Sequence record: OR845587.1
Length of the DNA stretch: 1,999 bases
DNA from: Escherichia phage ECO95 1-6-1
Reading direction: 5' to 3' (one strand)
Shown piece after piece: positions 1 through 1,760 of this stretch. Within the stretch, counting starts at the first letter, position 1; each line of letters opens with the position of its first letter. Position numbers and translations under genes: made by a program. The notes beneath the pieces are model-generated. The model saw only the letters and a list, made by a program, of their open reading frames with translations. It was not told the origin of the DNA and searched no databases.

Positions 1-290
1 CTATCGCCCCGTTAACGCCATACGATAAATGGGATGGTGAGAAATGGGTGACGGATACCGAGGCACAGCATAGCGCCGCAGTAGAAGCGGCAGAAGCACA
101 GCGCCAGTCGCTGATTGATGCTGCAATGGCTTCCATCAGTCTGATTCAGCTGAAATTACAGGCCGGACGTAAACCGACGCAGGCAGAAACAACCAGACTT
201 AACGCTGTGCTGGATTACATTGACGCGGTGACGGCAACAGATACCAGCACCGCGCCGGATGTCATCTGGCCTGAACTGCCGGAGGCGTAG
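1..290 (+). CDS. tfa: Tail fibre assembly protein (Tfa/U/G-like chaperone), C-terminal part; 5' end lies upstream of the window
   Basis: Frame 3 is open from position 3 to the TAG at 288-290; the ORF-track start (GTG at 48) is internal. Translation ...IAPLTPYDKWDGEKWVTDTEAQ...LDYIDAVTATDTSTAPDVIWPELPEA has the C-terminal signature I recall for phage tail fibre assembly proteins (DTS(T/S)APD-IxWP). About 60% GC in the 61-120 sample. Confidence 0.8.
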   Translation, partial: IAPLTPYDKWDGEKWVTDTEAQHSAAVEAAEAQRQSLIDAAMASISLIQLKLQAGRKPTQAETTRLNAVLDYIDAVTATDTSTAPDVIWPELPEA

Positions 291-705
291 GCCATTCAAT
301 ATCTGGCGCACTGGAGGTATCCACCAGTTCCAGTGCGTCCAGGTAATCCAGCCACAAATTATATTGCGCCAGTTCCTCACCTTTCAGACGACCAATAGCT
401 GCTTTGCCAGGCCATTGCTTACTGTTCATGTATTCGTTAGCCTGGTTAATTAGTAGCTGTCTTTCTGATTCAGTAATTTCAATAAGCTCTTCATGCGTGG
501 GTGGAGGAATATCTGCCCACGCAGGCAGCCCATCATCTCCGGCAATACGGATTTTTCCTTGTGGCGGTTCAGCCATAAACTCACTGATAATATTTTGATT
601 TACTTCCTTTGCGTCTGATAAATCCCATCCCTCTGATTTATATTTATCAATCATATCCACAGGGAAAAAAGCATTATGCCTTGCGCTATAAACATATTCG
701 TTCAT
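262..705 (-). CDS. Alternative tail fibre assembly protein (Tfa'/U'-like) of the oppositely oriented cassette, 147 aa
   Basis: Minus-strand ORF with stop TGA (complement of 262-264). I prefer the ATG at 705-703 (MNEYVYSARHNAFFP..., matching the usual Tfa N-terminus) over the ORF-track GTG at 714-712, because a GGGTG Shine-Dalgarno (complement of 713-717) sits 6 nt upstream of it. C-terminus LDYLDALELVDTSSAPDIEWPTPP is homologous to the + strand Tfa C-terminus. Confidence 0.75.
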   Translation of the reverse strand: MNEYVYSARHNAFFPVDMIDKYKSEGWDLSDAKEVNQNIISEFMAEPPQGKIRIAGDDGLPAWADIPPPTHEELIEITESERQLLINQANEYMNSKQWPGKAAIGRLKGEELAQYNLWLDYLDALELVDTSSAPDIEWPTPPAVQAR

Positions 706-725
706 ATAAATCACCCTGAATAAAA

Positions 726-1139
726 TTACTCACCAACAGCCCACCAACTGTAATTCATCGATACTGTGGAGCTGGTTGATGCAGTTCTGTAAGCGGAATT
801 AAAACCGGTTAGTGTTGGACCTTCTGCAGTCATCACGAATCCCCGTCCAGCGCCTAAAGGCGCACCACCATCACCAGAATGGGTAAGCATGGCGCAGTCC
901 ACTTTTTTAGGAAAAGGGATGCTGAATGTAATTCTCATTGTTTGCGTCGATAATGTCGGCGTAATCGCACCACGACCATATTGCAGGATTTTCCCGTTGG
1001 GTAATTTCATCCATCCATCACCACTGGCAAAAGAGGTCATGTCCGGTATCTGATTTTCCCCTGTTCCTACATTCCGTTTTGCCGCTTCTCCCAAACCAAC
1101 GTTTATGAAAATGCAGAGATAACGGGCAACTGGCATCAT
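726..1139 (-). CDS. Alternative tail fibre C-terminal variable segment (S'v/H'v-like receptor-binding cassette), probably expressed only after inversion fuses it to the constant fibre gene part
   Basis: 137-aa minus-strand ORF; stop TAA at complement of 726-728, 20 nt upstream of the tfa' start (fibre then chaperone order). Contains a GW-KLPNGKI-QYG-type motif and a Gly/Ser/Thr-rich tail typical of fibre tips. The crossover site lies inside its 5' end (codons ~10-18), and the ATG at 1139 has its GGAG immediately abutting it, which is poor spacing for an independent start. The minus frame is closed just upstream by a TAA (complement of 1149-1151). Confidence 0.6.
1086..1111. other. Site-specific recombination crossover site for the invertase (cix/gix/hix-like), right-hand boundary of the invertible segment
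   Basis: TTCTCCCAAACC-AA-CGTTTATGAAAA is a 12+2+12 imperfect palindrome (7/12 half-site positions symmetric) with the TTC...AAACC / GGTTT...GAA architecture of Hin/Gin/Cin/Pin sites; central dinucleotide AA at 1098-1099. It lies 56 bp upstream of the invertase start and inside the 5' end of the silent fibre segment, as gixR/cix do relative to gin/cin. Confidence 0.65.
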
Positions 1140-1153
1140 CTCCGGTTTTTATT

Positions 1154-1160
1154 CAGGGGG
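1154..1160 (+). promoter_or_regulatory. Ribosome-binding site of the invertase gene
   Basis: AGGGGG, 6 nt before the ATG at 1167. Confidence 0.6.
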
Positions 1161-1166
1161 ATGCTC

Positions 1167-1760
1167 ATGCTTATTGGCTATGTACGCGTGTCGACAAATG
1201 ACCAGAACACGGAATTGCAGCGTAACGCGCTGGAGTGCGCAGGATGCGAGCGGATTTTTGAGGATAAAATCAGCGGCACGAAGTCCGACCGACCGGGACT
1301 GAAAAAACTGCTCAGAACATTATCAGCAGGTGACACTCTGGTAGTCTGGAAGCTGGACCGGCTGGGGCGTAGTATGCGGCATCTGGTCATTCTGGTTGAG
1401 GAGCTGCGCGAACGCGGCGTTAATTTTCGCAGCCTGACAGATGCTATTGATACCAGCACGCCGATGGGGCGTTTTTTCTTTCATGTGATGGGTGCCCTGG
1501 CTGAAATGGAGCGAGAACTCATTGTCGAGCGGACACGCGCCGGACTGGAAGCGGCCAGAGCCAAAGGGCGTATTGGTGGCAGACGTCCGAAGCTCACCGC
1601 GAGTGAGTGGGAGCAGGCAGGACGGTTGCTGGCTGCGGGTGAATCACGTCAACGCGTGGCGCTGATTTTTGATATTGGCCAGTCCACGCTCTATAAAAAA
1701 TTCCCCTCATCAGCGGCAGAGAATAAATTGTGTCATCCCTTAGCCAACCGGGACAAATAG
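1167..1760 (+). CDS. Serine recombinase, DNA invertase of the Gin/Cin/Pin/Hin family (197 aa)
   Basis: MLIGYVRVSTNDQ N-terminus with the catalytic Ser in RVSTNDQ, VVWKLDRLGRS, MGRFFFHVMGALAEMERELIVERT, GRIGGRRPKL and a C-terminal helix-turn-helix (QSTLYKKFP) are hallmark motifs of this family. I chose the ATG at 1167 over the ORF-track ATG at 1161 because family members begin MLIGY and the Shine-Dalgarno spacing fits only 1167. Stop TAG at 1758-1760. Confidence 0.95.
   Translation: MLIGYVRVSTNDQNTELQRNALECAGCERIFEDKISGTKSDRPGLKKLLRTLSAGDTLVVWKLDRLGRSMRHLVILVEELRERGVNFRSLTDAIDTSTPMGRFFFHVMGALAEMERELIVERTRAGLEAARAKGRIGGRRPKLTASEWEQAGRLLAAGESRQRVALIFDIGQSTLYKKFPSSAAENKLCHPLANRDK
1225..1315. promoter_or_regulatory. 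Predicted Fis-dependent recombinational enhancer (sis-like) inside the 5' coding region of the invertase
   Basis: In Hin/Gin/Cin the enhancer lies in the first ~60-170 bp of the invertase ORF. This interval holds AT-rich tracts flanked by G/C (CGGATTTTTGAGGATAAAATCAGC at 1251-1274, GACTGAAAAAACTGC at 1297-1311), and the first resembles the hin enhancer region as I recall it. Placement is by analogy; the Fis sites are not confidently resolved. Confidence 0.35.

Follow-up and report, generated by a model that had tools for sequence, protein, structure and literature searches.

The stretch of DNA analysed here (1,999 nucleotides, hereafter "the window") very probably comes from a P2-like (Peduovirus) prophage and represents the invertase-proximal (right) half of a host-range switch that gives the tail fibre two states, in the manner of e14 P, Mu G and P1 C. 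The original prediction, made from the sequence alone, had placed the right half of a G/C-segment switch in a P2-like tail module, and protein domains, identity of the invertase, crossover site, synteny, partner sites of the relatives and natural inversions all agree with this assignment; the elements that it had listed are all present, at or near the positions foreseen. The window holds the right half of the system; the left half, to judge from the relatives, would consist of the constant part of the fibre gene H, the expressed cassette and the partner crossover site. The Pin-type switch is real but ordinary, belonging to an allele family that has been sequenced and annotated hundreds of times and is already known in the literature, and inversion in P2-like prophages has likewise been published before. 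The features of the window are the following.

1-290, plus strand: 3′ part of the tail-fibre assembly gene tfa (95 codons and stop), TfaE type, expressed orientation, co-directional with H and the sheath gene
262-705, minus strand: tfa′, alternative assembly gene, complete (147 aa), silent orientation, convergent with tfa
726-1098, minus strand: silent variable cassette, alternative C-terminus of fibre protein H, without a start codon or promoter of its own
1086-1111, no strand: right-hand 26-bp crossover site TTCTCCCAAACCAACGTTTATGAAAA, central AA at 1098-1099
1167-1760, plus strand: serine DNA invertase of the Pin/Gin/Cin/Hin subfamily, 197 aa, intact, with Resolvase and HTH_7 domains
1212-1274, no strand: candidate recombinational enhancer within the 5′ region of the invertase gene, a putative pair of Fis-like 15-mers with centres at 1219 and 1267 (48-bp spacing)
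1727-1796, plus strand: P2 late promoter pF of the sheath operon, alignment with the annotated P2 pF region nearly perfect from 1739
1820-1999, plus strand: first 60 codons of the sheath gene FI of the tail, belonging to the backbone, outside the switch

Fibre cassette and assembly genes

That an expressed-orientation tfa opens the window, as had been proposed, is borne out by the match of 1-290 with Pfam Caudo_TAP (E=1.3e-25) and by the 96.8% protein identity of the visible part with residues 106-200 of e14 TfaE; in the relatives the TfaE-type protein has 200 aa, and in L001 and L002 the full tfa lies directly 3′ of H on the same strand. The inverted, silent tfa′ is equally well founded, being a complete 147-aa Caudo_TAP protein (E=1.9e-31) whose gene overlaps tfa by 29 bp at its 3′ end; it is 54% identical to e14 TfaP, and public assemblies contain the exact protein in 5,026 indexed blocks.

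The silent fibre cassette is present on the minus strand as predicted, its boundary being the centre of the crossover site (1098/1099) rather than the ATG at 1139. Indeed, the ORF 726-1139 carries a Gp53-like_C fibre-tip domain (Pfam, E=6.6e-13), whereas its first 13 codons (1139-1101) are a chance extension beyond the crossover point; the variable part of the cassette amounts to 121 residues, ending ...WWAVGE. These residues form the C-terminus of the intact 399-aa H protein found in the flipped relatives L004 and L024. Past GLGE the two fibre tips are unrelated in sequence, and they presumably bind different receptors.

Comparison with the databases places the combination of cassettes. The closest full-length match to the window is 97.2% identical; positions 266-1999 are 99.6% identical to the L005-type prophages and the left tfa is of the TfaE type of L001 and pro483, so that the window is a recombinant combination of known cassettes. 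Exact-protein look-ups found relatives, none of which is 100% identical over window 1-265, and neither a 120-mer across the tfa/tfa′ junction nor a 60-mer from the left tfa had an exact match in two scans of species-representative genomes. The particular pair of fibre tips and chaperones, in which the interest of the element had been thought to reside, is on the contrary a common one, of e14 type: pro483, Peduovirus magyaro and hundreds of annotated genomes have these cassettes, this site and this invertase.

Crossover site and partner site

The crossover site at 1086-1111 reads TTCTCCCAAACC-AA-CGTTTATGAAAA; read on the minus strand, its inner half-site codes for G-L-G-E of the fibre. The window has a single copy of the site, and none of 200 shuffles has one, even when three mismatches are allowed; homology with relatives that are flipped or differently loaded breaks at 1085-1111. 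The description of this element as "cix-like" was right as to the presence of a crossover site and can be made more exact, the 26 bp being base-for-base those of the e14 (Pin) site that lies beside pinE in E. coli K-12. With Mu gixR 17 of the 26 positions match (by hand count on the alignment), and the distance from the invertase start is equal.

A partner site, TTCTCCCAAACC-AA-GGTATGCGAGAA, inverted and having the same central AA, is present in each of the nine P2-like loci examined (L001-L007, L023 and L024), where it lies 1.55-1.9 kb upstream, inside H; searches anchored on the shared inner half-site yielded exactly two sites per locus. A corresponding inverted copy of TTCTCCCAAACCAA...GAGAA would be expected upstream of this very window, at ~0.8 kb before base 1 if the relatives are taken as a guide.

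Invertase and candidate enhancer

The assignment of 1167-1760 to the Gin/Cin/Pin family holds good on all counts: domains, identity with PinE and Gin, the catalytic serine and the residues contacting Fis and the enhancer. Residues 3-135 match Resolvase (PF00239, E=8.1e-53) and residues 138-181 match HTH_7 (PF02796, E=1.5e-12); the closest homologue is e14 PinE (86.7% identity), Mu Gin being 77.8% identical, and the best solved structure is that of Gin (3UJ3, E=4e-94), against 3e-33 for gamma-delta resolvase. The catalytic Ser9 lies within MLIGYVRVSTNDQ. A further in-frame ATG occurs at 1161.

In the 351 aligned bases comprising the site and the 5′ end of gin, mean column identity between Mu and the window is 82%; the region in which published work places the sis enhancer of Mu is covered by this stretch. 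In Mu, the best Fis-like pair of 48-bp spacing lies at +119/+167 relative to the gix centre, and its counterpart in the alignment is +120/+168 of the window. The scan for the Fis consensus is non-specific, giving 153 matches in 2 kb, and the element at 1219, read by eye, is below the scan cut-off. The translated invertase has Arg42, K46/K47/R50 and Q150/R153/L154, in a numbering one below that of Hin, which agrees with the alignment of the Hin DNA-binding domain; in Hin, K47, K/R48, K/R51, Q151, R154 and L155 are described as diagnostic of Fis/enhancer-dependent invertases (PMC3798978). The switch of the window presumably depends on Fis.

A sigma-70 promoter scan gave two matches against 2.5 expected, none of them upstream of the invertase and none above shuffles; terminator-like matches in the window numbered seven against 1.9 expected and are weak and mostly intragenic. 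No Rfam family reached the gathering score in the window and none of the five proteins reached the cut-off of any NCBIfam model.

Inversion in relatives and proposed mechanism

In relatives having the invertase of the window or a close allele of it the segment actually inverts. Two pairs of public assemblies display the segment in inverted form between flanks that are identical near the switch. In the first pair (L004 and L005, both with the exact invertase of the window) the left flank agrees at 4340/4340 bases, and the 1,579 bp that separate the site centres are precise reverse complements of each other; the second pair, the O157:H7 isolates AC-5 and AC-3, which are siblings, shows no difference at any of the 8,422 flanking bases, and its 1,579-bp segment is again an exact reverse complement. 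Both states occur in the population: in a set of 5,426 complete E. coli genomes, 283 have the cassette of the window beside the invertase and 90 have it joined to H. In the relatives the fusion with H is in frame in both orientations, and pro483 carries the L001-type segment flipped. Experiments have shown the two orientations to coexist in e14 and in P2-like prophages from EPEC (PMC4272514).

The following mechanism can be envisaged. The constant 5′ part of H and the promoter would lie outside an invertible segment of ~1.6-1.9 kb, made of two convergent modules, each comprising a variable H C-terminus and its matching chaperone Tfa. The Pin-like serine invertase would bind the two inverted 26-bp sites, one inside H at the A-Y-L-G-L-G-E codons and the other at 1086-1111, and, with host Fis sitting on the enhancer at the beginning of the invertase gene, would cut both at the central AA/TT, after which the half-sites would be rotated by 180 degrees. 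In the state represented by the window the TfaE-type module occupies the expressed position, the Gp53-like tip and the 147-aa tfa′ being silent; a single inversion would fuse H in frame to ...GLGE/AAKRNVG..., with tfa′ placed behind it.

Alternative explanations

The left half of the system being outside the window, it could be imagined that the switch is frozen or decayed, the prophage being defective, with its partner site or the constant part of H lost and with cassette and invertase surviving as relics. Some relatives offer precedents of a kind, since Mu-like genes stand in place of part of the L006 baseplate region, L007 is without a full-length H call and the cassettes of L013 and L021 are shortened. 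However, no damage is seen in the invertase ORF, the crossover site or the two visible genes of the window; prophages with the very same invertase protein occur in either orientation, and no P2-like relative examined lacks the partner site. Decay is quite improbable here. More remote is the chance of a multi-site, shufflon-like switch with at least three crossover sites and more than two fibre C-termini. One P2-like prophage of EPEC E2348/69 is reported to have three inverted repeats and four coexisting variants (PMC4272514), and further cassettes could lie upstream in the source, but positions 1-1999 contain one site even when three mismatches or a degenerate half-site pattern are admitted, and searches anchored on the shared inner half-site gave exactly two for each close relative (L001-L007, L023 and L024), for which reasons this candidate was rejected.

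That the module serves the bacterial host, for instance by retargeting a domesticated tailocin, instead of the host range of an infectious phage, has next to no probability: the relatives are complete P2-like genomes, including the isolated phages pro483 and Peduovirus magyaro, and around the module their lysis, baseplate, sheath, tube and tape-measure genes are intact. These facts outweigh the occurrence of the same invertible module in e14-like defective elements and the possible use of such variation by the host, raised in PMC4272514. A two-state switch of phage host range remains by far the preferred reading.

A 16-nt repeat and wider significance

A conserved 16-nt repeat is present on the plus strand as ATCACCCTGAATAAAA at 710-725 and as TTTTATTCAGGGGGAT at 1147-1162, the latter copy covering the Shine-Dalgarno sequence of the invertase. 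The copies are inverted in the orientation of the window and direct when the segment is flipped, and therefore would not pair in the flipped state. In the predicted RNA fold of 690-1185 the long-range 16-nt pairing appears, with an overall stability no better than that of shuffles (z = -0.18). It is conceivable, albeit very unlikely, that the repeat ties invertase translation to the state of the switch, pairing in RNA produced by late-operon read-through hiding the ribosome binding site and this feedback biasing the switch.

The findings are of some practical use. The same Pin-type module with identical sites is common to e14-like and P2-like elements, and according to published work Gin, Cin, Pin and Hin cross-complement one another; as a consequence, the invertases of co-resident prophages should flip each other's segments. 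Prediction of host range for P2-like phages must weigh both fibre forms, and automatic annotation can call the fibre gene broken in one orientation, as happened in strain AC-3. For the rest, the window represents a textbook bet-hedging switch of little scientific weight.

P2 backbone and insertion hotspot

The P2-like order V-W-J-I-H-(tfa)...FI-FII-E-T-U-D, with pF upstream of FI, is supported by synteny in L001, L002, L004 and L005. The beginning of FI matches Gp18_domIII_N (Pfam, E=1.9e-6), is nearly identical to that of P2 FI and is annotated as sheath protein in all relatives. The homologue of the pF activator-binding site (~1712-1751) is broken by 11 extra bases at 1715-1725, its conserved parts being 1727-1731 and 1739-1750; the predicted start site is at ~1794-1796 and the promoter overlaps the final 11 codons of the invertase gene.

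It had been stated that in classical P2 G is directly followed by FI with no invertase. The latter point is correct, whereas between G and FI lies fun(Z), on the opposite strand. An insertion into the G-FI junction is ruled out, P2 holding the moron fun(Z) there. The invertase of the window occupies the Z/fun variable hotspot. Z/fun is a known variable site that often carries a DNA invertase, the genes next to it being inverted (bioRxiv 10.1101/2024.10.15.618418).

Comparison with known systems

Among the closest systems is the e14 P-segment with PinE, with which the window shares an identical 26-bp site on the invertase side and the succession of convergent tfa genes, silent fibre C-terminus, site and invertase. 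The two elements differ in backbone: the baseplate of e14 is of Mu type, with homologues of Gp45-48, and pinE is followed by mcrA, whereas the window has a P2-type tail and FI downstream; furthermore, the second chaperone departs from TfaP to the extent of the identity given above, and compared with PinE the invertase has a C-terminal extension of 13-16 residues, the last 11 codons overlapping the pF region.

The Mu G segment with Gin has the same architecture (Sc / Sv-U >< U′-Sv′ / gin). On the other hand, the fibre tips and chaperones of Mu give no BLASTP match with the proteins of the window at E<=1e-3, and the Mu segment measures ~3 kb, as opposed to ~1.6-1.9 kb in the P2-like switch.

Classical P2 (NC_001895) shares the tail-module backbone, with pF and the start of FI nearly identical from window position 1739, but has here a fixed H-G pair, a terminator and fun(Z), and no invertase. 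Its H gene retains a degenerate gix-like sequence (L011 1858-1883) that matches the H-side partner site, taken as a pattern, at 18/26 positions. Finally, pro483, Peduovirus magyaro (KC618326) and the prophages of O157:H7 and EPEC E2348/69 carry the same element, with the invertase in the Z/fun hotspot; P2-like invertase carriers show 93-97% nucleotide identity across the window and share the order H-tfa-tfa′-cassette-invertase-FI, so that the differences between them and the window are allelic only.

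Organization of the switch

A six-frame ORF listing combined with Pfam scans and a search of the window for the crossover site recovered every one of the elements listed in the original prediction:

1-290, + strand: last 95 codons of tfa (Caudo_TAP, E=1.3e-25)
262-705, - strand: tfa', whole 147-aa assembly protein, convergent with tfa (Caudo_TAP, E=1.9e-31)
726-1139, - strand: ORF with a Gp53-like fibre-tip domain (E=6.6e-13)
1086-1111: crossover site TTCTCCCAAACCAACGTTTATGAAAA, between the fibre-tip ORF and the recombinase gene
1167-1760, + strand: 197-aa recombinase (Resolvase and HTH_7 domains)
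1820-1999, + strand: first 60 codons of the contractile-tail sheath protein FI

The two assembly genes share an 18-nt imperfect inverted repeat (209-226 / 335-352) encoding the conserved LDYIDA/LDYLDA motif.

At the protein level the recombinase shares 86.7% identity with PinE of element e14 (E. coli K-12) and 77.8% with Mu Gin, without gaps; the solved structure it matches best is Gin 3UJ3 (E=4e-94), gamma-delta resolvase reaching only 3e-33. The catalytic residues Ser9 and Arg42 are present, as are K46/K47/R50 and Q150/R153/L154, equivalent to Hin 47/48/51 and 151/154/155, positions described as diagnostic of Fis/enhancer-dependent invertases (McLean et al., PMC3798978). The crossover site occurs once in the window and in 0/200 shuffles, with 3 mismatches tolerated. 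The e14 site beside pinE is this 26-bp sequence base for base; Mu gixR also aligns with it, matching at 17/26 positions as counted on the alignment, and is equally far from the start codon of its invertase gene. Thus, given this identity and a recombinase closest to PinE, the site predicted as "cix-like" is more exactly labelled "Pin-type".

The partner site in relatives and the in-frame fusion

Matches covering the whole window are found in two phage records, at 93% identity, and in 143 complete E. coli genomes, where P2-like prophages reach up to 97.2%. The closest relative, L001, is arranged as V-W-J-I-H-tfa(200 aa)-tfa'(147 aa, reversed)-cassette (reversed)-invertase-FI-FII-E-T-U-D; its fibre gene H contains an inverted partner site, TTCTCCCAAACC-AA-GGTATGCGAGAA, separated from the invertase-side site by 1,878 bases. 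Such a site with central AA was found in 7/7 P2-like loci first compared and in both loci fetched later; the anticipated inverted second site upstream is therefore present in all nine relatives, the window itself ending short of its expected position. From these relatives we infer that the left half of the switch would likewise be present upstream of the window.

The coding strand of H across the partner site reads A-Y-L-G-L-G-E and the minus strand of the window across its site reads ...N-V-G-L-G-E, followed by cassette residues; exchange at the central dinucleotide would therefore give an in-frame fusion of the constant H part with the silent cassette of the window. A crossover at this point also sets the cassette limit, so that the true boundary is 1098/1099 and not the ORF start, the 13 codons with which the listed ORF begins (up to 1139) being a chance extension. 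These data establish the parts of the switch and an in-frame fusion in both of its states.

Evidence of inversion

Relatives having an identical enzyme and site demonstrate exact inversions as well as the partner site. In a pair of public assemblies (L004 and L005), both encoding an invertase identical to that of the window, the left flanks agree at 4340/4340 positions and the stretch of 1,579 bases from one site centre to the other is exactly reverse-complemented. This 1,579-base stretch is likewise inverted, again exactly, between AC-5 and AC-3, O157:H7 isolates from one greenhouse-soil source that share every one of the 8,422 flanking bases in a 10-kb region. Flipping leaves H as an intact ORF of 399 aa, and the 121 residues of its variable C-terminal part are those of the window's silent cassette. 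Of 5,426 complete E. coli genomes, 283 have the cassette beside the invertase, as in the window, and 90 have it fused to H. Furthermore, the L001-type segment has the opposite orientation in Escherichia phage pro483, and homology of the window to flipped or differently loaded relatives always breaks at 1085-1111. Coexisting orientations have been reported from whole-genome sequencing of clonal cultures for e14 and two P2-like EPEC prophages (PMC4272514).

In AC-3 (L024, 3899-5098) RefSeq splits the flipped fibre gene into an incomplete pseudogene and a separate 136-aa "phage tail protein"; translation gives a single intact ORF of 399 aa, so the split is an artefact of annotation in one of the two switch orientations.

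Proposed mechanism and candidate enhancer

By analogy with the biology of the family, the reaction would involve a Fis-bound enhancer in the 5' end of the invertase gene and double-strand cleavage at the central AA/TT followed by subunit rotation, and would yield two fibre tips of presumably distinct receptor specificity. Aligned with its Mu counterpart, the stretch that runs from the crossover site into the 5' part of the gene has a mean column identity of 82%; in Mu, according to published work, the sis enhancer lies inside the invertase gene. A candidate pair of Fis-like 15-mers with 48-bp spacing is positionally conserved with Mu, the Fis scan being non-specific.

A 16-nt repeat, TTTTATTCAGGG(T/G)GAT, occurs at 710-725 (-) and 1147-1162 (+), that is, in the translation-initiation regions of both tfa' and the invertase gene. 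Found in 0/200 shuffles, it is kept in all P2-like relatives (L001-L008) and is absent from e14, Mu and P2. Its copies are inverted in the window orientation and direct in flipped relatives; the inverted copies pair in both the MFE and the centroid RNA fold of 690-1185.

Mosaicism and spread of the cassettes

The expressed chaperone of the window is of the TfaE type, as in L001, pro483 and e14, whereas that of the L005-type O157 prophages is a 131-aa protein. The latter prophages are 99.6% identical to window 266-1999, the similarity beginning exactly at 266, and the cassette types switch over in the 29-bp overlap (262-290) of the convergent tfa genes, which suggests that cassettes are exchanged here by recombination. 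The TfaE/Tfa' invertible module is found in both e14-like (Mu-type baseplate) and P2-like backbones, in both orientations in each, with an identical 147-aa Tfa' across these two unrelated backbones (L013-L022), and 5,026 indexed blocks of public assemblies contain exactly this Tfa' protein. The particular pair of tips and chaperones, originally singled out as noteworthy, thus brings together very common cassettes by reassortment and is not new as a pair.

In one assembly (L006, 1-1675) the R-S-V-W portion of the P2-like tail module has given way to Mu-like transposase C-terminal, HTH_35 and CI-repressor genes, and the J gene is truncated; a Mu-like prophage has apparently inserted into this P2-like prophage.

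Comparison with P2 and known systems

The premise that in classical P2 gene G is directly followed by FI proved inaccurate, the two being separated by a terminator and by the moron fun(Z) on the opposite strand. P2 homology of the window resumes at ~1727, nearly perfect from 1739, and spans most of the annotated pF activator-binding site, the start site (~1794-1796) and FI; judging from this alignment, the hotspot insert meets the backbone on its right-hand side at ~1727-1739. The end of the invertase gene consequently falls within the pF late promoter region, its last 11 codons and stop (1727-1760) lying in the conserved activator-binding region. This overlap contributes to the 13-16 residues by which the invertase exceeds PinE, the C-terminal extension being partly encoded by backbone promoter DNA. 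The location, Z/fun, is already known as a variable hotspot of P2-like phages, where DNA invertases are frequent and neighbouring genes inverted (2024 preprint, bioRxiv 10.1101/2024.10.15.618418).

The fixed H of P2 (NC_001895, L011) retains a degenerate gix-like sequence (1858-1883, reverse complement TTCCTGTAAACCGAGATATTCGATAA), matching the H-side partner site of P2-like relatives, used as search pattern, at 18/26 positions; it could be a remnant of an invertible fibre carried by an ancestor. With these minor corrections, domains, enzyme, site and exact inversions in relatives bear out the reading of a tail-fibre inversion switch, a known system in a known location, already present and annotated in hundreds of genomes.
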